Shown one piece after another: positions 1,901 to 22,069 of a stretch of DNA of 48,282 bases. Made by a program: the position numbers and the translations under genes. This stretch comes from Rhodospirillaceae bacterium (GTDB taxonomy: Bacteria; Pseudomonadota; Alphaproteobacteria; Rhodospirillales; Magnetospirillaceae), in the NCBI GenBank assembly GCA_013349665.1, contig DUZF01000001.1, positions 1-48,282 of the forward strand, given 5' to 3'. Position 1 is the first letter of the stretch, and the number at the start of each line of letters is the position of its first letter. Below the pieces are notes generated by a model. The model saw only the letters and a program-made list of their open reading frames with translations, was not told where the DNA came from and made no database searches.

Positions 1901-3802
1901 TTGTCGCGGAGGTGGGCGACGGACAATTCCATTGATCAGGCCCTGGCGGCGTCCTCGGCCATGCAGGCGGACGGCCGCTGGCGCGAGGCCGAAGACATTT
2001 ATCGGGCCATCCTGCGAAGGTGTCCGGCCCAGCCGGATGCCAACCACAACCTCGGCATCATGGCCGCCCAGCGTGGTCTGCCGCAGCAGGCCTTGCCCTA
2101 TCTGCGGGCGGCTGTCCTGGCGGCCCCCGGCATCGCCCAATTCCGGCTGTCGCATATCCAGGCCTTGCTGGACGGCGGCCTGACGGCGGCGGCCGGCCGG
2201 GAGCTTCGGCAAAGCCGCCGGCTGGGGTTCTCCGGCACCGCCTTCGATGATCTGCAAGGCCGTCTCGACGGGGCGCGGCGCGGCCTTGCAGCGGTGGACG
2301 GAGCGTCGCTGTTCAATCTTGCCCTCGACCATCACCGGGCCGGGCGTCTGGGCAGCGCCGCCGCAGCTTACCGCCGGGTCCTGCTGCGCCGCCCCGACGA
2401 TCCGCTGCCGCTGTATTGGCTCGGCAATGCGCTGCGCGACCAGGGCTGGCTGGCGGCGGCGACCGCCTGTTACCATCGCGCCCTGGTCGGCCGGCCGGAT
2501 TTCGCCGAGGCCCTGTTCGTCCTTGCCACCTTTGACGACGACCGTCGCGGCTTTGCCCGCGTGCTGATGCTCAAGGCGGATTACCCGGCGGTCTACTGCA
2601 ACCTGGGAACGATGGCGGCGGTCGCCGCCGAGCCTCGCCGGGCGATGATCCTCTGGCGCGCCGCCCTGGCCTTCGATCCGGCCCTCGCCGAGGCCCATTT
2701 CAATCTCGGCACGGTTGATGACGCCCTCGGCGAGGACGAGATCGCCATCCGCCGCTATCGTCGTGCCAGGACCATTCTGCCCGGTTACGCCGGCGCCCAT
2801 GTCAATGAAGGCCTGTGCCGCCTGCGGATTGGCGACTATGCCGGCGGTTGGGCCGAATATGAATGGCGGTGGCATGGCGGCAGTCCTGATCTGGCGCCGC
2901 GGCGCTTCGCGGTGCCGCGATGGGACGGCGGACCGCTTCCCGGGCGCACCATCCTGCTGCATGCCGAACAGGGTTACGGCGATGCCCTGCAGTTCTGCCG
3001 TTACCTGCCGATGACGGCGGCGGCGTCCGGCGCCCGTCTGGTACTCGAGGTGCCGCCGCCGCTGAAGGCCCTATTGACCGGTTGGCCAGGGGCGGTGGAG
3101 GTCATCGCCCAGGGGGAACCGTTGCCGTCCGTCGATGCCCATTGCCCATTGCTGAGCCTGCCGGGAATTTTCCGCACCACAGCGGACACCATACCGGATG
3201 GGCCACCCTATCTGGCGGTGGCGCCCGCCCTGGTTCATCAGTGGCGGCGCCGACTGTCGGCGGAGCGACCGCAGATCGGCGTCTGCTGGGCCGGCAATCC
3301 GGGCAACCGCAGCGATCACCGGCGCTCTCTGCCGCTGGAGCAGTTGCTGCCGCTGCTGGTCAGGGGCGGCGCCACCTGGCATGTGCTGCAAAGGGATCTG
3401 CGCGACGGCGATTATCGCCTGATCTCCGCGGTGCCGTGGCTGGTCCGGCATCCCCTGGCCGATTTCGCCGATACCGCGGCGCTGGTGTCGGCGCTCGATC
3501 TGGTGGTCAGCGTCGATACCGCCGTCGCCCATCTGGCCGGGGCCCTGGGCCGGCCGACCTGGCTGCTGTTGCCCTATGTCGCGGACTGGCGGTGGTTGAG
3601 GGACGGCGAGGACAGTCCCTGGTATGCCAGCATGCGACTGTTCCGCCAACCGGCCCCCGGCGACTGGCGCCCGGTGCTGGACCGCCTGGCCGCCGCCTTG
3701 GACGATATCGCTCCCGCCCCCCGCCGTCTCCGGCGCGGGGCGGGGCATGGCGGCCAGTTCCGGCCGTTCTGCGAGGCCCGCCCGACGAAATTGTCGATCT
3801 GA
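1901..3802 (+). CDS. TPR-repeat protein with C-terminal glycosyltransferase family 9-like domain
   Basis: The N-terminal half has TPR-like repeats (EAEDIYRAILRRCPAQPDANHNLG, AAYRRVLLRRPDD, ALAFDPALAEAHFNLG). The C-terminal half carries LLHAEQGYGDALQFCRYLP and VSVDTAVAHLAGALGRPTW, typical of TPR-GT9 fusions. Start is uncertain (TTG 1901 or ATG 1961; frame open from 1676). The last ~17 codons read antisense through MCP-fragment copy A. Confidence 0.65.
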   Translation: MSRRWATDNSIDQALAASSAMQADGRWREAEDIYRAILRRCPAQPDANHNLGIMAAQRGLPQQALPYLRAAVLAAPGIAQFRLSHIQALLDGGLTAAAGRELRQSRRLGFSGTAFDDLQGRLDGARRGLAAVDGASLFNLALDHHRAGRLGSAAAAYRRVLLRRPDDPLPLYWLGNALRDQGWLAAATACYHRALVGRPDFAEALFVLATFDDDRRGFARVLMLKADYPAVYCNLGTMAAVAAEPRRAMILWRAALAFDPALAEAHFNLGTVDDALGEDEIAIRRYRRARTILPGYAGAHVNEGLCRLRIGDYAGGWAEYEWRWHGGSPDLAPRRFAVPRWDGGPLPGRTILLHAEQGYGDALQFCRYLPMTAAASGARLVLEVPPPLKALLTGWPGAVEVIAQGEPLPSVDAHCPLLSLPGIFRTTADTIPDGPPYLAVAPALVHQWRRRLSAERPQIGVCWAGNPGNRSDHRRSLPLEQLLPLLVRGGATWHVLQRDLRDGDYRLISAVPWLVRHPLADFADTAALVSALDLVVSVDTAVAHLAGALGRPTWLLLPYVADWRWLRDGEDSPWYASMRLFRQPAPGDWRPVLDRLAAALDDIAPAPRRLRRGAGHGGQFRPFCEARPTKLSI

Positions 3803-3845
3803 TCATTCATTTGTTCGGCGCGCTGGGCGAGATCGCCGACGGCCC
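3750..3845 (-). repeat. MCP 3'-end fragment, copy A (gene remnant, stop codon lost)
   Basis: Minus strand encodes [31 protein letters not shown]. Near-identical at the nucleotide level to 8244-8316 and homologous to the true MCP 3' end at 8946-9038. Has TGG where copies B and D have TGA. Confidence 0.85.
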
Positions 3846-4100
3846 CCAAGGTCCTTTTGATCCAGTCGGCTTCCATGGTTCGGCGAAGCATGGCCTGACT
3901 GTACTGGCGTGACCGCGACAGCGACGGCCGAAACGCGAGGCTTCCCAGCGCATTTCAGCCACCCACATAGACGCAACACCTCCCGAACCTGCCACAATTG
4001 CGACTGACGGGCTATTTCGTAAATGCCTGCGACGGGGAGCCCAGCACCCACGTCTCGGCGGACTTGTTCGGACATTGGAGTCTCCGGGTTCGGATAAGGG

Positions 4101-5051
4101 TCAAACGCTGTCCGGCAATGGAATGAACTCAACCTCGTCGCCCACCACCTTGGCGAAGCGGCCGGCCCTCCAATCTGCCTTGGCCTGCTCGATGCGTTCG
4201 CGGCTGGAGGAAACGAAGTTCCAGAAGATGTGGTGGGGGCCAACCATGGCGGCGCCTCCCAACAGCATCAGTCGCGCCCCTTGCGGCCCGGCGCGCAGCG
4301 CCAAACGGTCGCAGCTGCGAAAGACCAGCATTCGGCCTGACGCGAACCGGTTGCCCGATATTTCGACCTCGCCCTCCACCACGTAGGCGGCGCGTTCTTC
4401 GTGTTCCTTTCCATCGGGCAGAGGCACGGCAGCGCCGGGAGCGAGAACAGCATCGGCGTAGAACAGCGAGGAAAACACCTCAACGGGCGAGGTCAGTCCC
4501 CACCCCGTACCGGCGATCAGGCGCAGCCACAGACCGCCTTCGGCGACCAGCGGCAGGCTGGCCCCCGGATGGTGGGCGAAGCCGGGGGCCGTTTCCTCGA
4601 CCGCCTGCGGCAGCGCAACCCAGGCCTGAATCCCGGACAGGCGGTTGGCGTGGCCGCGCAAGTCTTGATCCGTGCGCTCCGAATGGGTAATGCCGCGACC
4701 GGCGGTCATCCAGTTGACGTCACCGGGGAGGATGGCCTGCCGCGAGCCCAGGCTGTCGCGATGAAGGATTTGGCCCTCGAACAGGTAGGTGACGGTTGCC
4801 AGGCCGATATGCGGGTGCGGGCGAACGTCGAGCCCTCGCCCCGCCAGGAATTCCCCGGGACCCGCCTGGTCGAAGAAGATGAACGGGCCGACCATCTGCC
4901 GCTGGCCTGCCGGCAGCGCACGGCGAACCTCGAACCCGCCGAGGTCGTGGCTCCGGGGCAGGAGCACAAGTTCGACGGTATCGGACGATGCAGAAAAGAT
5001 CGGATTTTCAGCGGGCTGCCAGCTCATCAGCATCCCCTCGCCTGTCGGCAT
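4101..5051 (-). CDS. pirin family protein
   Basis: 316-aa ORF with the bicupin pirin signature (GGFEVRRALP, MVGPFIFFD, HPHIGLATVTYLFEG, GDVNWMTAGRGITHSE). Start is ambiguous between ATG 5051 and ATG 5033. Confidence 0.8.
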   Translation of the reverse strand: MPTGEGMLMSWQPAENPIFSASSDTVELVLLPRSHDLGGFEVRRALPAGQRQMVGPFIFFDQAGPGEFLAGRGLDVRPHPHIGLATVTYLFEGQILHRDSLGSRQAILPGDVNWMTAGRGITHSERTDQDLRGHANRLSGIQAWVALPQAVEETAPGFAHHPGASLPLVAEGGLWLRLIAGTGWGLTSPVEVFSSLFYADAVLAPGAAVPLPDGKEHEERAAYVVEGEVEISGNRFASGRMLVFRSCDRLALRAGPQGARLMLLGGAAMVGPHHIFWNFVSSSRERIEQAKADWRAGRFAKVVGDEVEFIPLPDSV

Positions 5052-5082
5052 TCGCAGGAAAAATAGGTGCCCCGACCCTCGG

Positions 5083-6750
5083 TTACAAGCTTAGCCGAGG
5101 TGTTGTTTTGGTGGGAGGCGCAGGGACGAACACGGAGAACATCGAGCCCCGACCGTCTCGGGAGGCGACCGCCACATGCAATCCCAAAAGAGTGGCCAGT
5201 TCCTTGACCGTCGCCAGACCCAAACCCAGCCCGCCGCCTCCGCCCGTTGCACTATTTTGCTGCGCGGTGGCGCCGCGATGGAAGGCTAGGAAAATTGTCT
5301 CAAAGTCCTCCGGTGGGATCCCTGGTCCGGTGTCCCAAACCTCGATCCGAACGCCACCCGTGGTCCGGCGACAGCCGAATAACACCCGCCCGCGAACGGT
5401 ATAGCGTACGGCGTTAGACAGCAGATTGCGCAGGAGGCGGGCGAGCAGCTGGGCATCAGTCTGCACCGACAGCGAGGACCGAACGTAGCGGAACTCAAGA
5501 CCGTGTTGAAAACAGCTGAGACGGCATTCATCGGCAAGTTGTGCCAACACCATCTCCACCGGAAAGCTCCGGACCTCGGGGTTAACAGCGTGACATTGCA
5601 CCGCGGTGATGTCGCTCAGGGAATCCAGCGCCGCGCCCATGGCCTCGAGACAGCTCGTGGTACGATCGACCAATGTGAAATTGCTTTCCACCGACGGCAG
5701 CCGGCCCCTGAGAACGTCGAGGAATAATCGCGCCGCCTGCAGCGGCTGCTTCAGATCATGACCGACAGCGGCGACCAAACGGGTCTTGGCGACGTTGGCG
5801 GTGTCGGCGTCGTCCTTGCCGGACACGGCCTGGACGAGCGCCTGCATCAATCGATCCGCATGGCGGTCGCGCTCGGTAATGGCGCCAACCAGAATGAGTA
5901 TGACGCCGCCGGTAACGGCCATCACCATTTGCAGCATGATAAGATTGCCGATGCGACTGCCATGGGAAAACGGTCCCACGCCCCAGGCGGTATAGCAGAC
6001 CGCCAGCACCAACATCACTTCGAGGGCCAATGTCGTCCATCGAGGCTGCAGGCGCAACCCTGCCCAGACCAGAGGTGGAAAGATGAACAGGATGACCGGC
6101 ATGCGGGTCAGGCCCAGCCAGTTCCAGGCCGTTTCTCCGACGAACGGAATCGTGGTTGCCGCGGCCACCGTGACCAGCAGGATGACAGCCTCGATGTGCC
6201 TTGCGTGTCTCCCGGGACTGGCCGGTCTTCCGAACCAGGCCAGAACCAGAGGCGTCAGAAACAGCGATCCCATCCCATCGCCGACCCACCAGACGAGCCA
6301 CACGTCAGCGTAATGTCCCCAATCCGACAGCTTGGCGAAGGATAGGCTGAGCACGCCCACGGATGCCGCCACCGTCGGGACAAGCAGTGCCACCCCCAGC
6401 AGTATCAAAGCGTCACGCACATGCGCGATCTCGCCGGTAATCCCCAGTTGGCGCAGTACAACAGCCCCAAGGATCGCCTCGGCGCTATTGCCGGTGGCTA
6501 TTCCCGCCGCCACCGTCACGGGATCGCCAATGCTGTAATTGACCAGGAAAGCCCCAAGAGCGATGGCCGGACACCAACGCGGCCCGAGAATCGTCAGGGC
6601 GCCGATAGAGAGTCCCGTGGCCGGCCAAAACGGCGAGACCGTGCCATGGACGAACGCAATGAGCAAACCGGCCTTGGCCGCCACCAAATAGACGATCAGC
6701 AACGCGGCGAACATACCGAGCCTTTTGCCGGCGGTGTCCAAACTCCGCAA
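5083..6750 (-). CDS. MASE1-domain sensor histidine kinase (orphan, no receiver gene adjacent)
   Basis: 555 aa. About 290 aa of multi-TM N-terminus in MASE1 style, then an H-box region (VAAVGHDLKQPL) and an ATPase domain (LLSNAVRY, DTGPGI, GGGGLGLGLATV). TTG start has a GGGAGG RBS 6 nt upstream. Confidence 0.7.
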   Translation of the reverse strand: MRSLDTAGKRLGMFAALLIVYLVAAKAGLLIAFVHGTVSPFWPATGLSIGALTILGPRWCPAIALGAFLVNYSIGDPVTVAAGIATGNSAEAILGAVVLRQLGITGEIAHVRDALILLGVALLVPTVAASVGVLSLSFAKLSDWGHYADVWLVWWVGDGMGSLFLTPLVLAWFGRPASPGRHARHIEAVILLVTVAAATTIPFVGETAWNWLGLTRMPVILFIFPPLVWAGLRLQPRWTTLALEVMLVLAVCYTAWGVGPFSHGSRIGNLIMLQMVMAVTGGVILILVGAITERDRHADRLMQALVQAVSGKDDADTANVAKTRLVAAVGHDLKQPLQAARLFLDVLRGRLPSVESNFTLVDRTTSCLEAMGAALDSLSDITAVQCHAVNPEVRSFPVEMVLAQLADECRLSCFQHGLEFRYVRSSLSVQTDAQLLARLLRNLLSNAVRYTVRGRVLFGCRRTTGGVRIEVWDTGPGIPPEDFETIFLAFHRGATAQQNSATGGGGGLGLGLATVKELATLLGLHVAVASRDGRGSMFSVFVPAPPTKTTPRLSL

Positions 6751-7018
6751 CAGTGACCTCCCTCTACAGGAAAAGAGGGCGGATCTTGGCGGTGCCGCCG
6801 GTTTAAAGAGAAGGAAACAGACGGTCAGATGCCATGGTGCAGTGCAGCATAATAAATGTGCATTGCATGGGGTGAAGCCATAAAAAGGGCAGCTTTATAG
6901 GCTGAGCGGACAAAATAGGAGCATTGGACACAATACCGTTTGATTCGTGCCGTTCGGCCCGAAAGAGTTCTCTATTTGCCCCTGAATACCCTTATCCCTA
7001 TCGAACTATAGTCTGAAC

Positions 7019-7111
7019 CGGTCAGGTCCGGCCGCTATGCGATACCCGCTCGACGAAATTGTCGATCTGATCATTCATTTGTTCGGCGCGCTGGGCGAGA
7101 TCGCCGGCGGC
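7019..7111 (-). repeat. MCP 3'-end fragment, copy B (gene remnant, stop retained)
   Basis: Minus strand encodes [34 protein letters not shown]-stop. The frame is closed by TGA immediately upstream, so only ~32 codons remain. Closest in sequence to the native MCP end (copy D). Confidence 0.85.
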
Positions 7112-7245
7112 AACAGCCACGGCTGATCAACATTCCAATCGCGAAAGGTCCTGCTCATAGAATGATGGAATCACATGCGGATTCCTTCGTCCAGAAAGAT
7201 CAGTAATTGCAATTAGTTGAGCCCCCAAACTGGTAATTTTTCGCC

Positions 7246-7346
7246 GTCATCCCGGGCGGAGCGCAGCGCAGACCCGGGATCCATGCCAGGACAAAGTCCG
7301 TCATTTCCATGGACCCCGGCTCGCGCTGCGCTTGGCCGGGGTGACG
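7246..7346. repeat. REP/MITE-like imperfect palindrome
   Basis: The left arm is 7246-7285 (gtcatcccgggcggagcgcagcgcagacccgggatccatg). It is the imperfect reverse complement of the right arm at 7307-7346 (ccatggaccccggctcgcgctgcgcttggccggggtgacg), with a 21-nt loop between them. Same type as the gtcatcccggg...gcgcagcgc palindromes scattered in alphaproteobacterial genomes. Confidence 0.65.
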
Positions 7347-7394
7347 ATCCTACTTCACCTTTATTAGGCTGGCACCGCCGCCACTCCCATTTGT

Positions 7395-7525
7395 CCGGAA
7401 TGTCGGGGGCGCAGCCCCACGACATTTCGGAGATAGGCTCCTAGCCCGCATTTCCCGCCCTTTGGGGTCGCGTCGTGGCGGGCGTCCGGTTCGTTGTCGC
7501 CCTCGGCGTGGCGGCCAGCCACGCC
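7395..7525. repeat. two further GC-rich hairpins next to the REP-like element
   Basis: 7395-7430 folds into a ~16-bp stem (ccggaatgtcgggggc gca gcccc a cgacatttcgg; one G.U pair, one bulge). 7505-7525 is ggcgtggc ggcca gccacgcc (8-bp stem). Confidence 0.55.
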
Positions 7526-7585
7526 TTCGGCCGGACCTGACCCATAAGAGAGCGGTCCGGGGCTGCCCCTCTGATGTCCCCCTGA

Positions 7586-7624
7586 TTGACGCGCAGCCAT
7601 AATGTAGCTATATTGTTGTAGCTA
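7586..7624 (+). promoter_or_regulatory. sigma70-like promoter with putative BrnA operator repeats
   Basis: TTGACG (7586-7591), a 17-nt spacer, then TATATT (7609-7614). TGTAGCTA occurs twice (7603-7610 and 7617-7624), each containing the TAGCTA palindrome, overlapping the -10 and the predicted start site. AGGAG RBS at 7626-7630. Confidence 0.55.
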
Positions 7625-7636
7625 CAGGAGCAGGGG

Positions 7637-7918
7637 TTGACGGACTGGACGTGGAGCTCAAAAAAGGCTCGGCAAAACCTGAAAAATCACAAGGTCAGCT
7701 TCGAGCTTGCAAAGCGTGCATTAGACGATCCGTTGGCACTGACACAAGATGACCCGTATCCGTATGAGCAACGATACCAAACACTGTGCCAGCCTAGCGC
7801 CTCATCTCATCTTCTTCTTTTCGTTGTCCACACATGCGACGAAGAGACGGACACAGGCAGGATTATAAGCGCTCGGAAAGCAGATCCGAGCGAAAGGAGG
7901 GCATATGAAGGGCGGTAA
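7637..7918 (+). CDS. brnT: BrnT family (DUF497) type II toxin
   Basis: 93 aa, TTG start after an AGGAG RBS. WSSKKARQNLKNHKVSFELAKRALDDP ... RIISARKADPSERRAYE matches the BrnT/DUF497 pattern. Overlaps brnA by 14 nt. Confidence 0.8.
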   Translation: MTDWTWSSKKARQNLKNHKVSFELAKRALDDPLALTQDDPYPYEQRYQTLCQPSASSHLLLFVVHTCDEETDTGRIISARKADPSERRAYEGR

Positions 7919-8192
7919 CACGAAGCCGTTGACGCCAGAGCTTGAGGCCGAAATTCGCGCCTTGGAAGCGATGCCGGACAGCGAGATCGACACCTCGGAC
8001 ATGCCAGTGGTCACGGATTGGAGCAAAGCCAAGCGGGGGATGTTCTACCGTCCCGTCAAGGCATTGCACTCACTGCGGATCGACAATGATGTATGGTCGT
8101 GGTTCCAATCCAAGGGCCGTGGCTATCAGACCCAAATCAACGACATCCTGCGACAGCAGATGGAGCGGGAGAAAGAACAGTCCCGCGCCTGA
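7905..8192 (+). CDS. brnA: BrnA family antitoxin
   Basis: 95 aa. The C-terminal SLRIDNDVWSWFQSKGRGYQTQINDILRQQM matches the BrnA RHH-like signature. Its stop TGA lies inside the left edge of repeat copy C. Confidence 0.8.
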   Translation: MKGGNTKPLTPELEAEIRALEAMPDSEIDTSDMPVVTDWSKAKRGMFYRPVKALHSLRIDNDVWSWFQSKGRGYQTQINDILRQQMEREKEQSRA

Positions 8193-8316
8193 CGCCGACA
8201 TCCGCATGACAACAGGTTGCGCGCTCCTGCGACAGGGTTTTAGTGCGGCCAGTTCCGGCCGTTCTGCGAGGCCCGCCCGACGAAATTGTCGATCTGATCA
8301 TTTATTTGTTCGGCGC
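8186..8316 (-). repeat. MCP 3'-end fragment plus 58 nt of downstream flank, copy C
   Basis: 131 nt at about 91% identity (about 12 mismatches by eye) to 8888-9018. The coding part gives AEQINDQIDNFVGRASQNGRNW (TGG instead of stop, as in copy A). Homology stops abruptly at 8316. Confidence 0.85.
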
Positions 8317-8345
8317 TAACGTTTTGCGACAGGGCGTGTTCTCGA

Positions 8346-8648
8346 TCAGGCGCGATTTGGCATGTCCGAAGCGTCGTAATGAACCGCCGACAAAATCGGC
8401 TTCTCCCGGTCGCGAAAGGCAATCCAATAGGGCGGGAAATAGACCCAATAGGTCCCCGCTTCCTTGAGCGAAGGGTAAGGACGCGGAGCAGGAAAAACTT
8501 TAGCTGTCCCCGCAATGATCGCGTCCGAGGCTTGCCCGAGCGTCTTATAGAGGTTCCGCACCGCCTCCGGGCGCTGCTTCTGATAGAGGTAATGCGTCAC
8601 CAGCGCCTCAACATGAGACGCGGCGCGAAAGGTATAGGGGAGGATCAT
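8346..8648 (-). CDS. RelE/ParE family type II toxin
   Basis: 100 aa. The C-terminal YWIAFRDREKPILSAVHYDASD fits the ParE Y-x-I-x-Y ... I-x-x-V-x-H pattern. 4-nt overlap with the upstream small ORF. Confidence 0.65.
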   Translation of the reverse strand: MILPYTFRAASHVEALVTHYLYQKQRPEAVRNLYKTLGQASDAIIAGTAKVFPAPRPYPSLKEAGTYWVYFPPYWIAFRDREKPILSAVHYDASDMPNRA

Positions 8649-8857
8649 CGACGAGAAGTCGCCGTCGGGTAGTCGTCGGGGTACGGCTCGGCCTCGTATC
8701 GGGCAAGCGCTTCCTGGATCCGGGCAAGCACAGTTTCACCGGGCACAACGCGACCCGCCTCAATGTCGGCCTTGCTGGCCGCGAGGTCTTCCCTAAGTTG
8801 TTCGATGGTCGTCAAGGTGTGCTGAGCCATCAGCTGAATATAAGCTCTTTTCGGCAA
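8645..8857 (-). CDS. putative antitoxin of the ParE-type toxin
   Basis: Small acidic ORF (62-70 aa; TTG 8857 or ATG 8830) translationally coupled to the toxin (LTTIEQLREDLAASKADIEAGRVVPGETV). Family not recognised with certainty. Confidence 0.5.
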   Translation of the reverse strand: MPKRAYIQLMAQHTLTTIEQLREDLAASKADIEAGRVVPGETVLARIQEALARYEAEPYPDDYPTATSRR

Positions 8858-8870
8858 GAAGCCAAGAATG

Positions 8871-8887
8871 CACGCCTAACGTGCACG
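8871..8887. promoter_or_regulatory. perfect palindrome TGCACG-N5-CGTGCA upstream of the ParE-type TA operon
   Basis: tgcacgcctaacgtgca lies 14 nt upstream of the TTG at 8857, directly abutting the left edge of repeat copy D. Plausible antitoxin operator. Confidence 0.4.
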
Positions 8888-9038
8888 CCTGACGCCGACA
8901 TCCGCATGACGAGAGGTTGTGCGATTCTGCGACAGGGTTTTAGTACGGTCAGTTCCGGCCGTTGTGCGAGACCCGCTCGACGAAACTGTCGATCTGATCA
9001 TTCATTTGTTCGGCGCGGTGGGCGAGATCGCCGGCGGC
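8888..9038 (-). repeat. native MCP 3' end plus downstream flank (copy D of the repeat family)
   Basis: The only copy attached to a full-length gene. Encodes ...[30 protein letters not shown]-stop. Confidence 0.85.
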
Positions 9039-10259
9039 GATGAGAACCTGGCCGGAGGCATCGGTCGCCGTACCCGCCATTTCGGCGACGTCGCCGATGG
9101 TCTGGGCAACCAATTGAATACCCTGCGCGACGGATCGTATCGAGGCGCTGATGTCAGCCACCGCCGTGCTTTGTTGATCGGTCGATGTTGATATGACCGT
9201 TGACGAGGAATCGATCTCGCGGACCATGGAGTCGATATTCCTGATCGCCGACACCGCGGTGTCGGTCATCGACCGCATGTTTCTTATCTGTTCGTCGATC
9301 TCGTCCGTCGCCTTGGCGGTCTGGTTGGCCAGGGTCTTCACCTCATTGGCGACGACGGCGAAGCCTTTTCCCGCCTCGCCGGCGCGGGCCGCCTCGATGG
9401 TCGCATTCAACGCCAGCAGATTGGTCTGGCTGGCGATGGCGTTGATGAGACTGACCACCTCGCCGATGCGCTGGGCGGCATCCACCAGCTTCAGAATATC
9501 CTGGTTGGCCTCGGCGACCACCCGCACCGCCGACTGGGCCTTCTCCGCCGATTGCGTCACCTGCCGGGCGACTTCGCGGATCCCGGCGGCAACCTGCTCC
9601 GCCGTCGCGGCCACCGCGTCGACGCTGGACGAGGTGTCTTCGGCCACATGGACCGCCTCGGAGGAGCTGGCGCTGGTGCGGGCGGCGATTTCCGACATCT
9701 GGCGCGAGGTGGCCTCCAGCTCGGTCGCCGTCGCCGCCATCGCCTCGCTCTCGTTCTTGATGGTGCCGCCGATTTTGCCGGCCTCGGCGGCGAAACTGTC
9801 GCTGCGTTGCTGCATGGAGGCCAAGGCTTTGTTGATCAGTCTTGCATGGGCAGCGAACTCACCCACCAGACCATCGGTGAGGATGTGCCTGAAATAGAGC
9901 CCGGCCGAGGTCTTCTCCATCGCCGCGTCGGCTTCCTTGGTGAAGACTTCCGTCAAATCGAGCAGGCGGTTGACGCCGCGGTCGAGTTCCGCCAACCCGC
10001 CCCGTTCGGTGATGCCGACGATGCGGACGTCAAGGCGGCCGGCCGCCGCCTCGGTCAGCACCGTGGTGGCGCGGCTGATTTCCAGGCGTGTCTTGTGGAG
10101 AAACCACAGGGCGGCCAGGGCCACCACGGCAACCGACAGATTGCCGGCGGCGTTGAGCAGGTCGCCGCGCAGGCTCATGAGGACGATCCCGACCAGGCTG
10201 AGGGCGGCGGCGATGCCGCAGGCCGCATAGGCTTTAGAGAGAGAAGACAAATTCATCAT
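8949..10259 (-). CDS. methyl-accepting chemotaxis protein (TM hairpin, no periplasmic domain)
   Basis: Start taken at ATGATG 10259/10256 (MMNLSSLS...). Two N-terminal TM segments. Conserved signalling hairpin [34 protein letters not shown]. The ORF track extends to 10334, but that part overlaps the PAS gene. Confidence 0.85.
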
Positions 10260-10758
10260 AGGAAATCCCCGCCGCCTGCAACTTGCTGAGCACCGCCTGG
10301 AAGCCGGCCTCCATTCCCGCCTTGCGATCGGCATGGGATTTTTCGATGGCCAGAAGTTCCTTGTAAAGGGCGTCCGCCTTGGCCACCGCCTCGGGCCGCG
10401 GCGAGCGGCGGTTGGAATGATAGCTGACGATCCGCCCGGTCTCGTCGAAGGTCGGCGTCACATGCGCAAGAACCCAGTAATGATCGCCGTTCTTGGCCCG
10501 ATTAAGTACATAGGCGAAGATCTCTTTCCCCGATTCGATGGTGTCCCAAAGCAGTTTGAAGACACAGCGGGGCATGGCGGGATGGCGGACGATGCTGTGC
10601 GGTTGCCCCAGCATTTCCTTCTCGCTGTAACCCGCCAAGCGCAGAAAGACCTCGTTCCCATAGATGATGTGACCCTTGGGATTGGTCTTGCTGACAATGA
10701 TTTCATTGGTACCGAACTTTCGCTCGACCCCGGATAGGAACACGCCGTCTTTCGCCAT
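10234..10758 (-). CDS. stand-alone Aer-like PAS domain protein
   Basis: 174 aa. [44 protein letters not shown] ... [17 protein letters not shown] resembles the FAD-binding PAS of Aer. Its 3' end overlaps the MCP start by 26 nt. Confidence 0.75.
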
Positions 10759-10935: not shown

Positions 10936-13233
<2,298 letters not shown>

Positions 13234-13294
13234 GAGTGGATCCTTCTTCATTGTTTTTGTTCATGTAACGGATAACGGACGCGAAAATCCGGGG

Positions 13295-13783
13295 TCAGGC
13301 GGATCGCTGATTGGCGTGGACATTGGCTCCGCCGGCGGCGGTCAGAATGTCGATCGCCTGGGGCCGTCGTGCCGGGTCGGCGATGTCGACCCACAGCAAC
13401 AGGCTGCCGGCCTCCAACGCCCGGACGAAATCCTCCGAATGCGGCTTGGCGGTCACCTCGTCGAGGAATTCCTTGACGGCGGCGCCGCCGACCCCGGCGG
13501 CGATGAGCGCGGCGATGGCGGCGCCCACCGGACCGGTGGCCAGGGCGATGAGCCCGGCGGTGATCAGCGGACCCTCGTATTTGAGCTCGCCGACCAGGGC
13601 GACCAGGCGTTCTTTCCAGCCGGCGACCGCCGTCTGGGCGGCGTCGATGCTGTCATGGGAGGCCAGGACCGAAATGTCGCTGCGCTGGAATCCGGCCGCC
13701 AGCAGGCTTTGCACGGCGCAATCAAAATCGCGGCGGGTGGAAAATATGCCGACCACTTCGCTGCGGGTGCGAGAACTGCTCAA
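13295..13783 (-). CDS. hypothetical membrane-associated protein
   Basis: 162-aa ORF with good GC3 bias and a central Gly/Ala-rich hydrophobic segment (LITAGLIALATGPVGAAIAALIAAGVGGAAV). No confident family assignment. Confidence 0.5.
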   Translation of the reverse strand: MSSSRTRSEVVGIFSTRRDFDCAVQSLLAAGFQRSDISVLASHDSIDAAQTAVAGWKERLVALVGELKYEGPLITAGLIALATGPVGAAIAALIAAGVGGAAVKEFLDEVTAKPHSEDFVRALEAGSLLLWVDIADPARRPQAIDILTAAGGANVHANQRSA

Positions 13784-20905: not shown

Positions 20906-22069
20906 TCAACCATGGCGCCGCATGAACTCGGCAAAAAGTGGTACACTGAAGTCCAGAAAGCCGTGATCAGAGCTGAAGACCATGCCTTTTGAGAGAATGC
21001 TTGCCCGAGCCGGTCCCAAGGAATTTTGAGAGCGGCCCATCGCCTTGGCAATGTCTGCCATTGCGTAGGGGCCGTCACCAAGTTGGGCCATTGTCTTGAC
21101 AAACTGGACCTCCGCCTTCGTCAGGCGGTCGATCCGCACTTTGAAGAACCCCTCGTCCAACCGCGCCAGCGTCTCCGCATAGGAACGGTCGACATCGTCA
21201 AAAGTGATTTCCGGTCCTTGCGAATTGTCCCATATGACCGAGCCCCATTCTTGAAGAAAGAAGGGATAGCCCTTGGTGCGCTCGACTATGGTCTGTAGTG
21301 CTTCCGGCGCAATGGTGGCCCCTTCCTCAAGAAATGGTTTTTCCACGGCCTGCCCGGCAGACACCGGGTCGAGCGCTCCCACGGCTGGAAATTGAAACAG
21401 CCGCTCTGAGTATGATTTCGCCTCGCCCGCCGAACGAGCAATTTGCGGGAGCCCAGCGCCAACCATGAGAATGGGCAAGCCATCTTGTGAGATGCGATGC
21501 AGCGCAACGATCAATGCCGACAGGTCGGCTTCGGACAGATATTGCACTTCATCGACCAGAAGCAGCCAGCCACGCCCTGCAGCTTGGGCGGCCTTCCCGA
21601 TCAGGGTGAACAGGTCCGGCAGATCGTACTGGAGATCACCTGTTTCGGCCAGTCCAGGCTCAGTCTCCATACCCACCTCAACGCCGGCGATCCCGATCTT
21701 GAAGGCCGATGCAAAGTTCCGCAGCCCGTTGAGACCGCGAAATGCCAGATGCTTTGCCGCTTCCACCCCCGACAGCGATCTCATGACCTTTCGCATTTCT
21801 GGAAAAATAAGGCGGGCGAGGCTTTCCCCTTCCGGAGATTCAACCCGGGAGACAAGCAGGCTCTCCTGCTCGGCGTTCCGACCGATCTCGTTGAGCAGCA
21901 CGGTCTTTCCAACGCCGCGCAGGCCCAGCAGCATGATCGAGCGCGCATTTCTTCCCTTCACGGCACGTCCGCACGATATCCTTGCCATCTCAAGGATGGC
22001 TGATCGACCGGCGAGTTCCGGTGGGCGACTGCCCGCACCAGGTGCGAATGGATTGCGATACGGGTCCAC
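20906..22069 (-). CDS. orphan AAA+ ATPase, ORC/Cdc6-like (AAA_16/ATPase_2 type) with probable C-terminal wHTH
   Basis: 387 aa. N-terminal FAPGAGSRPPELAGRSAILE, Walker A GLRGVGKTVLLNEI, Walker B LLLVDEVQYL. The C-terminal ~90 aa (LTKAEVQFVKTMAQLGDGPYAMADIAKAMGRSQNSLGPARASILSKGMV) looks like a winged helix. GTG start after a GGAGGA RBS. Visibly lower GC than its flanks. Confidence 0.7.
   Translation of the reverse strand: MDPYRNPFAPGAGSRPPELAGRSAILEMARISCGRAVKGRNARSIMLLGLRGVGKTVLLNEIGRNAEQESLLVSRVESPEGESLARLIFPEMRKVMRSLSGVEAAKHLAFRGLNGLRNFASAFKIGIAGVEVGMETEPGLAETGDLQYDLPDLFTLIGKAAQAAGRGWLLLVDEVQYLSEADLSALIVALHRISQDGLPILMVGAGLPQIARSAGEAKSYSERLFQFPAVGALDPVSAGQAVEKPFLEEGATIAPEALQTIVERTKGYPFFLQEWGSVIWDNSQGPEITFDDVDRSYAETLARLDEGFFKVRIDRLTKAEVQFVKTMAQLGDGPYAMADIAKAMGRSQNSLGPARASILSKGMVFSSDHGFLDFSVPLFAEFMRRHG

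Follow-up and report, generated by a model that had tools for sequence, protein, structure and literature searches.

How does the end of a chemoreceptor gene come to stand four times within a few kilobases, when only one of the copies is part of a complete gene? The question arises from a 48,282-nt stretch of DNA from an alphaproteobacterium (Rhodospirillaceae bacterium, assembly GCA_013349665.1, contig DUZF01000001.1), referred to here as the window. The 3′ end of a methyl-accepting chemotaxis protein (MCP) gene is present in it as four direct copies, A to D, all on the minus strand, which divide 5.3 kb into three intervals; the complete gene is attached to copy D only. The answer that we favour, and to which we would give about an even chance, is that decayed integrative elements form a fixed tandem array here, accreted at the 3′ end of this PAS-linked MCP gene in the manner of cis-mobilizable elements (CIMEs). 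It would then be a known kind of genome scar, here at a new target gene. The copies are as follows.

3747–3843, minus strand: copy A, a 93-nt tail with TGG replacing the stop codon, plus 4 nt; edges as in copy B
7015–7111, minus strand: copy B, a tail of 93 nt that keeps TGA as its stop codon, plus 4 nt; both flanks unrelated
8186–8316, minus strand: copy C, the tail from codon AEQ on (72 nt), with TGG replacing the stop codon, plus a 60-nt 3′ flank
8886–9038, minus strand: copy D, comprising the live MCP tail at 8949–9038 (90 final nt and the stop) and the 60-nt 3′ flank that it has in common with C (8886–8948)

The first-pass annotation of this DNA had described four same-orientation copies with only D on a full gene, and both a repeat search and a count of the tail core found them again; the minus-strand translations given at that stage were also correct. 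The repeat search of the window returned a four-member family of 93 nt (3751–3843, 7019–7111, 8246–8338 in register, and 8946–9038) and a 131-nt family made up of copy C (8186–8316) and copy D (8886–9016) at 91% identity. A 38-nt core of the tail occurred four times in the 48-kb window, compared with 0 occurrences in 100 shuffles, and no further copy of this core was present in the window beyond copies A–D.

Copies A and B form one discrete unit of ~97 nt that starts at GCCGYCGGCGATC and ends 4 nt past the position of the stop codon, while the sequences on either side of each are unrelated. The two differ at 8 of 93 positions and are therefore not a recent copy of one another. Because they have the same two edges despite their unrelated flanks, two independent random breaks would not be expected to produce them. 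A block of identity running from a fixed internal point to just past the stop codon is instead what is carried by elements that target gene 3′ ends. Copy C has a different 5′ edge, starting 21 nt later at AEQ, and C and D are alike for 60 nt beyond the stop. The earlier division of the copies into two sequence classes stands in part: A and C are nearly identical (71/72), but B–D (87/93), A–D (86/93) and A–B (85/93) are about equidistant. Similarly, A and C had been said to have lost the stop codon; TGG does replace it in both, but a C-type tail terminates three codons later (..NGRNWPH, then stop).

The gene to which copy D belongs, and its partner upstream, are the following.

8949–10259, minus strand: MCP gene, 436 aa; MCPsignal domain, E=5e-32 (Pfam)
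10234–10758, minus strand: PAS-domain gene, 174 aa, overlapping the MCP start; from the gene table of contig L001

The PAS and MCP genes form a conserved operon, and the same pair is found in contigs L003 and L004. MCP orthologs of 435–438 aa occur in Magnetospirillum, Telmatospirillum and Azospirillum relatives and have a homologous C-terminus, ..AAGDLAxRxxxMNDxIDxFVxRV.., so that the repeat, as judged from sequence, encodes the true C-terminal peptide of these receptors. For the 97-nt unit, an origin as a miniature inverted-repeat transposable element (MITE) was rejected, since orthologous MCPs end in a homologous peptide. The nearest relative of this MCP in the genome collection is 63% identical, and no close paralog was found in a collection of 5.8 billion proteins that contains those of this genome; the next match there was at 74%, in another organism. 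No tRNA or tmRNA gene was found in the 48-kb window, and an Rfam search gave nothing relevant.

The arrangement is stable across strains. Contig L001, from another European Nucleotide Archive (ENA) assembly, is 99.89% identical over 20.2 kb and contains the whole arrangement, and contigs L016 (a Joint Genome Institute (JGI) sample, 99.0%) and L005 (an ENA sample, 96.8%) have the same order of D flank, ParD/ParE-like genes, copy C and BrnA. As these contigs come from other samples, the arrangement is not an assembly artefact, and its presence in L005 makes the C/D duplication older than ~3% divergence. Both L005 and L016 start 4–5 nt past the MCP stop codon, where the tail copies diverge. In contrast to the same-species contigs, orthologous MCP loci from other genera (L002, L003/L004, L017) keep the PAS–MCP pair with different genes downstream and no tail duplication, which points to lineage-specific acquisition; with no conserved downstream synteny among them, no true empty site can be defined. 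In a 92.3%-identical relative, L010, homology ends inside the PAS gene (window ~10414) and foreign DNA follows. That foreign DNA holds a repeated CCCCACAAAT motif at 9780–9914 of L010, which is possibly the end of an insertion sequence, and the PAS–MCP operon appears to be disrupted there.

The differences between strains are unevenly placed. Compared with the window, L001 has 22, of which 13 lie in 3304–3425 and 8 in 12753–13768, the last being a 1-nt deletion in copy C (8272); the pattern looks typical of recombination tracts rather than of point mutation. All 13 differences in L016 fall within the segment of the ParD/ParE-like genes and the D flank, and 8 of them are common to L005. At three positions that differ from the window, the D flank of both L005 and L016 has the base of the C flank. 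Together with the near identity of A and C, these are clear signs, read from sequence comparison, that gene conversion or allelic recombination acts among the copies. Donors or the order of events can thus be only weakly inferred from copy similarity, and the earlier suggestion that at least two donors were involved loses weight accordingly.

The interval between copies C and D holds a small cassette, relatives of which were found in other settings.

8837–8865, minus strand: promoter-like site of the ParD/ParE-like cassette, TTGGCT-17-TATATT
8645–8830, minus strand: ParD-like antitoxin gene, 61 aa, overlapping the toxin start; called as 61 aa in L016
8346–8648, minus strand: ParE-like toxin gene, 100 aa; rare family

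The two genes overlap by 4 nt. The promoter-like site, like those named below for brnT and the kinase gene, is a match to the consensus promoter. The first-pass annotation had called this a ParE-type toxin–antitoxin (TA) pair with its own operator; the promoter-like site was found, but the ParE label has no sequence-profile support and agrees with a weak fold match only. The ParD-like protein gave a weak match to the RelB/ParD antitoxin C-terminus (E=0.049) and the ParE-like protein had no match in Pfam or NCBIfam. An AlphaFold2 model of the latter (mean predicted local distance difference test score 76) had ParE, PrpT and PfiT as its top folds in the PDB, all weak, with template modelling scores of 0.5–0.59 and E values of 0.08–0.6. 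In the 99%-identical strain L016, a 2-nt deletion at window positions 8422–8423 frameshifts the ParE-like toxin into a 114-aa product, and the toxin is thus decaying in at least one lineage.

Five relatives of the ParE-like protein were found in one search and three further loci in another. When the cassette was compared with those of L007, L008 and L009, homology began at the −35 box. The L007 cassette is bracketed by a ~60-nt direct repeat of 90% identity (33–92 and 785–845). This repeat represents the 3′ end of a gene for a LysE-family exporter, and its identity ends 1 nt past the stop codon of that gene. The topology is that of the MCP locus, with gene, insert and displaced tail, on an unrelated contig. 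In L019, L020 and L021 a tRNA-Arg(CCG) gene (594–670, 1254–1330 and 4463–4539, respectively) has its 3′ end 80–165 nt away from the ParE-like cassette; short direct repeats around these tRNA-linked cassettes were sought and none were detected. The ParE-like toxin had no match in the plasmid collection and gave no alignment in the viral contig collection.

A 10-mer, CCCTGTCGCA, recurs around this cassette.

8928–8937, minus strand: exact copy of the 10-mer, 11 nt after the MCP stop (copy D)
8228–8237, minus strand: exact copy of the 10-mer, in copy C
8325–8334, minus strand: exact copy of the 10-mer, 11 nt after the ParE-like stop
4028–4037, minus strand: copy of the 10-mer with one mismatch, ~185 nt before copy A

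These three exact matches are the only ones in the window; all are in the locus, and all follow a stop or pseudo-stop codon at a distance of 11 nt. The corresponding place in contig L008 (933–947), which comes from another sample and whose ParE-like cassette is 62% identical, is taken by CTCTGTCGCA. As for the role of the 10-mer, an arm-type site, a small terminator hairpin and a relic of recombination are all conceivable.

The interval between copies B and C carries a second TA module together with hairpins.

7528–8187, plus strand: BrnTA segment, with promoter at 7586–7614, brnT at 7637–7918 and brnA at 7905–8192
7251–7341, no strand assigned: pair of GC hairpins like repetitive extragenic palindromic (REP) or MITE elements; inverted repeat of the CCCGGG..GCGCAGCGC..CCCGGG type

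BrnT scored 69.7 bits (Pfam gathering cut-off 34.5, E=3e-19) and the adjacent BrnA 50 bits (cut-off 26.1, E=4e-13), and 7637–8192 is a predicted type II toxin–antitoxin system, BrnT/BrnA. A brnTA module with its own promoter next to REP/MITE sequence had been described in this interval; this is upheld except for the strand, which is plus and so opposite to the MCP gene. The BrnTA cargo is foreign and modular. Positions 7528–8187 are 93.8% identical to contig L011 across 660 nt, with no similarity beyond the segment, and the setting in L011 is an islet of three TA modules (a PSK_trans_fac/PIN pair, i.e., VapBC, a Phd-type pair and BrnTA; L011 3600–6300) bounded by carboxylase genes and a MalT-like regulator. 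There are no tail repeats between the three modules of L011. The homology breaks off at 8187, precisely where copy C has its edge (8186), and BrnA is without its last four codons here (..SRDLT then stop becomes ..SRA then stop), with 2 nt of microhomology at the joint. Because of the missing codons, this joint is best read as a deletion or an illegitimate junction. The hairpins have ~40-nt matches at 95–97% in Bosea and Pannonibacter plasmids and belong to a widespread alphaproteobacterial REP/MITE-like element. When the DNA from 7100 to 9040 was compared with the plasmid collection, only these hairpins matched, and a search of the viral contig collection with BrnT gave no match.

The largest interval, between copies A and B, has a different content.

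5083–6750, minus strand: MASE1-HisKA-HATPase histidine kinase gene, 555 aa (Pfam); promoter-like site at 6849–6876
4101–5027, minus strand: pirin gene, 308 aa, with Pirin and Pirin_C domains; from the gene table of L001

The Pfam domains agree with the pirin and MASE1 kinase named here earlier. The best outside relatives of the kinase are 57–63% identical. Guanine–cytosine (GC) content is 0.57–0.58 in the TA intervals, 0.62 in the kinase/pirin interval, 0.645 in the MCP gene and 0.57 in the PAS gene. The description of every interval as lower in GC thus holds for the TA intervals but is weak for the kinase and pirin.

A gene end that is duplicated in this way is known from integrative elements. 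In Escherichia coli K-12, e14 begins inside icd, and the displaced icdC is 165 nt long and ~92% identical, with identity ending 1 nt after the stop codon. At icd, where e14 and phage 21 use a tyrosine integrase, as at the MCP locus, the 3′ end of a coding gene is duplicated with a sharp 5′ edge and an end just past the stop; the live gene keeps the tail borne by the element and the old tail is left promoterless at the far end, as the icdC pseudogene, and the copies are ~92% identical in both cases. The two differ in that e14 is 15 kb long and has intE and xisE, whereas the MCP units are 0.6–3.2 kb and without an integrase, and in that the MCP locus has three displaced tails in series with an MCP gene as the target.

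Arrays in which such repeats follow one another in tandem are documented, some with units that lack integration genes (CIMEs, formed by accretion; PMC5704250). In accretion among CIMEs, integrative and conjugative elements and integrative and mobilizable elements (ICESt1-type at fda; streptococcal tRNA-Lys; PMC5704250), integration genes are lost while attL and attR are kept, and several units stand in tandem, in one orientation, at the end of one target gene (PMC5704250). The definition of the CIME type fits here, with three intervals, four same-strand copies and no recombinase. Known arrays, however, coexist with or trace to autonomous elements with cognate integrases, none of which was found here, and their attachment (att) repeats are usually 15–30 bp compared with 93–131 nt at the MCP locus. 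Islands at ssrA in Dehalococcoides are also similar: they lie in tandem downstream of a single-copy gene, delimited by many direct repeats of its 3′ end, and some units there are without an integration module and possibly fixed (PMC3146451). In contrast, the ssrA repeat is a 20-bp piece of the tmRNA gene, and the islands, which are much larger, have mostly retained a serine-recombinase module.

For the MCP locus, decay of integrative elements would have proceeded along the following lines. Each incoming element would have borne its own copy of the last ~93 nt of the MCP gene, comparable to the icd end carried by e14 and phage 21 or to the RNA 3′ end carried by tRNA and tmRNA islands. Recombination within this ~93-nt block would leave the MCP intact and move the previous tail downstream as a promoterless fragment. 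Later deletion of the integrase and excision genes and of most cargo would have produced CIME-like units and, with them, the odd joints at C and BrnA. What survives would either resist loss or be harmless, namely the ParD/ParE-like pair, BrnTA with the REP hairpins, and the kinase with pirin. Type II TA systems show addiction behaviour, and the TA modules may have been kept because their loss is penalised. Recombination between the copies would since have homogenised some of them. Conserved arms of the elements could be represented by the 60-nt flank of C and D and by CCCTGTCGCA, which borders the ParE-like cassette at either end and has a one-mismatch copy near A. We infer that a site-specific recombinase made the joints and that the elements once carried integrases, and the order of events given here is of the same kind.

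Several observations weigh against this history. Evidence on recombinases came from the gene table of L001 and from Pfam scans of the open reading frames (ORFs) in the window with 180 aa or more, on both strands where these overlap, and of the small ORFs in the intervals. Integrase, resolvase, transposase and reverse transcriptase domains were absent from the window ORFs of at least 180 aa and from the small interval ORFs, in agreement with the earlier statement that the window holds no integrase or transposase. Searches of genome, metagenome, viral, phage and plasmid collections gave no intact element bearing the tail. The first four of these collections do not include this species, and no extra tail copy turned up in any of them: a degenerate tail pattern had 0 matches in genome contigs, the exact tail core 0 in viral and metagenome contigs, and the tail peptide found nothing in viral contigs (as an alignment query) or phages. 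Empty sites, intermediates or differences in cassette number were absent among the four same-species assemblies in the parts covered, and all four agree wherever they overlap. The kinase/pirin interval is without any sign of recent transfer (outside matches of 57–63%, GC 0.62), and the element-side flanks of A and B have no convincing common arm sequence. Copy C has its different 5′ edge, and the truncated BrnA with its 2-nt microhomology calls for extra deletion events. The proposal of serial insertion into a gene 3′ end is partly supported, by the A/B edges, the icd-like design, the foreign cargo and the ParE-like cassettes at another duplicated gene tail and near tRNA-Arg; it is qualified by two joints that look illegitimate or deletional.

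Those joints speak for the main rival history, homology-anchored import from related strains without a dedicated recombinase, which we consider possible although rather unlikely. The DNA of relatives would bring an orthologous MCP end with another module downstream; MCP homology would anchor it on one side, and the other side would be joined illegitimately at microhomology or through a Campbell-type single crossover of a circular fragment, so that each import leaves the old tail of the recipient as a truncated fragment. Besides the loss of four codons from BrnA with 2-nt microhomology at the C edge, copy C begins at an arbitrary codon after GTTAG/CGCC, where AGCG microhomology is possible. The 60-nt non-coding flank common to C and D would be expected if both came from real MCP loci, the clustering of strain differences in tracts shows frequent homologous recombination at the locus, and the 6–9% divergence among copies resembles that of the 92.3%-identical relative L010. 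Independent illegitimate joins, however, are very unlikely to give A and B edges that are equal to within 1 nt between unrelated flanks. In A, B and the L007 repeat, identity extends no further than just past the stop codon, as is characteristic of att blocks that restore the end of a gene, and no donor strain was found with the MCP directly before one of these modules. The common edges are also unexpected from random deletions, which bears on the improbable alternative that the copies are leftover tails of locally duplicated or paralogous MCP genes, wrecked by deletions and insertions and later gene-converted. In its favour, A and C agree at 71 of 72 positions though far apart, and the D flank of 99%-identical strains differs from the window where those strains match C, which indicates conversion. 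Yet no remnants of an MCP body lie upstream of A, B or C, where similarity ends abruptly; the protein collection that includes this genome holds no close MCP paralog, the next match being the 74% one from another organism; and the window has no other copy of the tail core.

A slim chance, in our estimation, goes to docking: the MCP tail would be a permanent docking site for very small cassettes without a recombinase, which a chromosomal or host recombination function would capture and stack in trans. Under this improbable reading, each cassette would comprise a promoter, its two TA genes and, at a distance of 11 nt behind the stop, a short conserved motif, CCCTGTCGCA. Such a locus would be an integron-like accretion platform whose attachment site is a coding 3′ end, and the same family would act likewise at the LysE tail of L007 and next to tRNA-Arg. 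Programmed tail switching, in which A, B and C are silent cassettes converting the receptor C-terminus in the style of pilE/pilS, had been raised as a speculative alternative and is very improbable. The copies are promoterless, same-orientation, partial 3′ ends near an expressed gene, and conversion among them seems to occur, but there are only three cassettes with a handful of residue differences, the part concerned is a cytoplasmic tail, for whose diversification no reason is known, and an A-type sequence on the gene would read on for ~60 codons. Unrelated selfish modules also occupy the intervals, and no recombination machinery is associated with them. The silent-cassette proposal is thus unsupported. 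The chances of an integron-like cassette array, or of a diversity-generating retroelement acting on the MCP tail, are close to nil. As in chromosomal integrons, single TA modules with their own promoters stand between conserved repeats in a cassette-like array, a likeness that is superficial. The integron array was ruled out, as there is no IntI or attI in the window, the repeats are a coding tail without an attC-like fold (as single-stranded DNA they gave folding z-scores of +0.36 to −0.86, with 42–124 of 200 shuffles folding equally well), and module orientation is mixed, brnTA being inverted relative to the other modules. The ~93-nt repeat of a gene 3′ end resembles the template and variable repeat pair of a retroelement; this candidate was rejected because the window has no reverse transcriptase and the template base is A in only one of the seven differences between copies A and D.

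The far end of the array meets a convergent gene.

1961–3802, plus strand: tetratricopeptide repeat (TPR)-containing gene, 613 aa, converging on the locus; from the gene table of L001

This is the gene labelled TPR-GT beyond the locus in the first-pass annotation; its strand is corrected to plus, and its ORF crosses a GC-rich hairpin (~3700–3745) and stops within the antisense of copy A (overlap 3751–3802). Its final 17 codons (..GQFRPFCEARPTKLSI, then stop) are antisense MCP tail, and the native C-terminus of the TPR protein was probably altered by the insertion history. The small interval ORFs, including a 90-aa ORF with a helix-turn-helix look at 3806–4075, had no family matches. Elsewhere, the neighbours of the locus in the window are housekeeping genes (among them MurJ, GlnD, MutS, malic enzyme, TyrRS, a MiaB-like protein, PhoH, Lnt and a molybdopterin oxidoreductase). 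The only accessory-looking gene outside the locus encodes a 387-aa AAA_16/AAA_22 ATPase (20906–22069, minus strand) without a recombinase domain.

By itself the locus involves no new mechanism; its only candidate for one is the 10-mer common to the 3′ flanks of the MCP and ParE-like genes, and a new mechanism would follow only if docking of recombinase-less cassettes proved true. In metagenome assemblies, signs of arrays of this type are fragments of gene tails without a promoter, and short contigs broken at such fragments, as L005 and L016 are. If the array is indeed one of decayed integrative elements, it would be a compact example of decay that leaves only att scars and addictive TA modules, and the tail of a chemoreceptor gene would join icd, fda, guaA-type and tRNA/tmRNA genes as a target of integrative elements.

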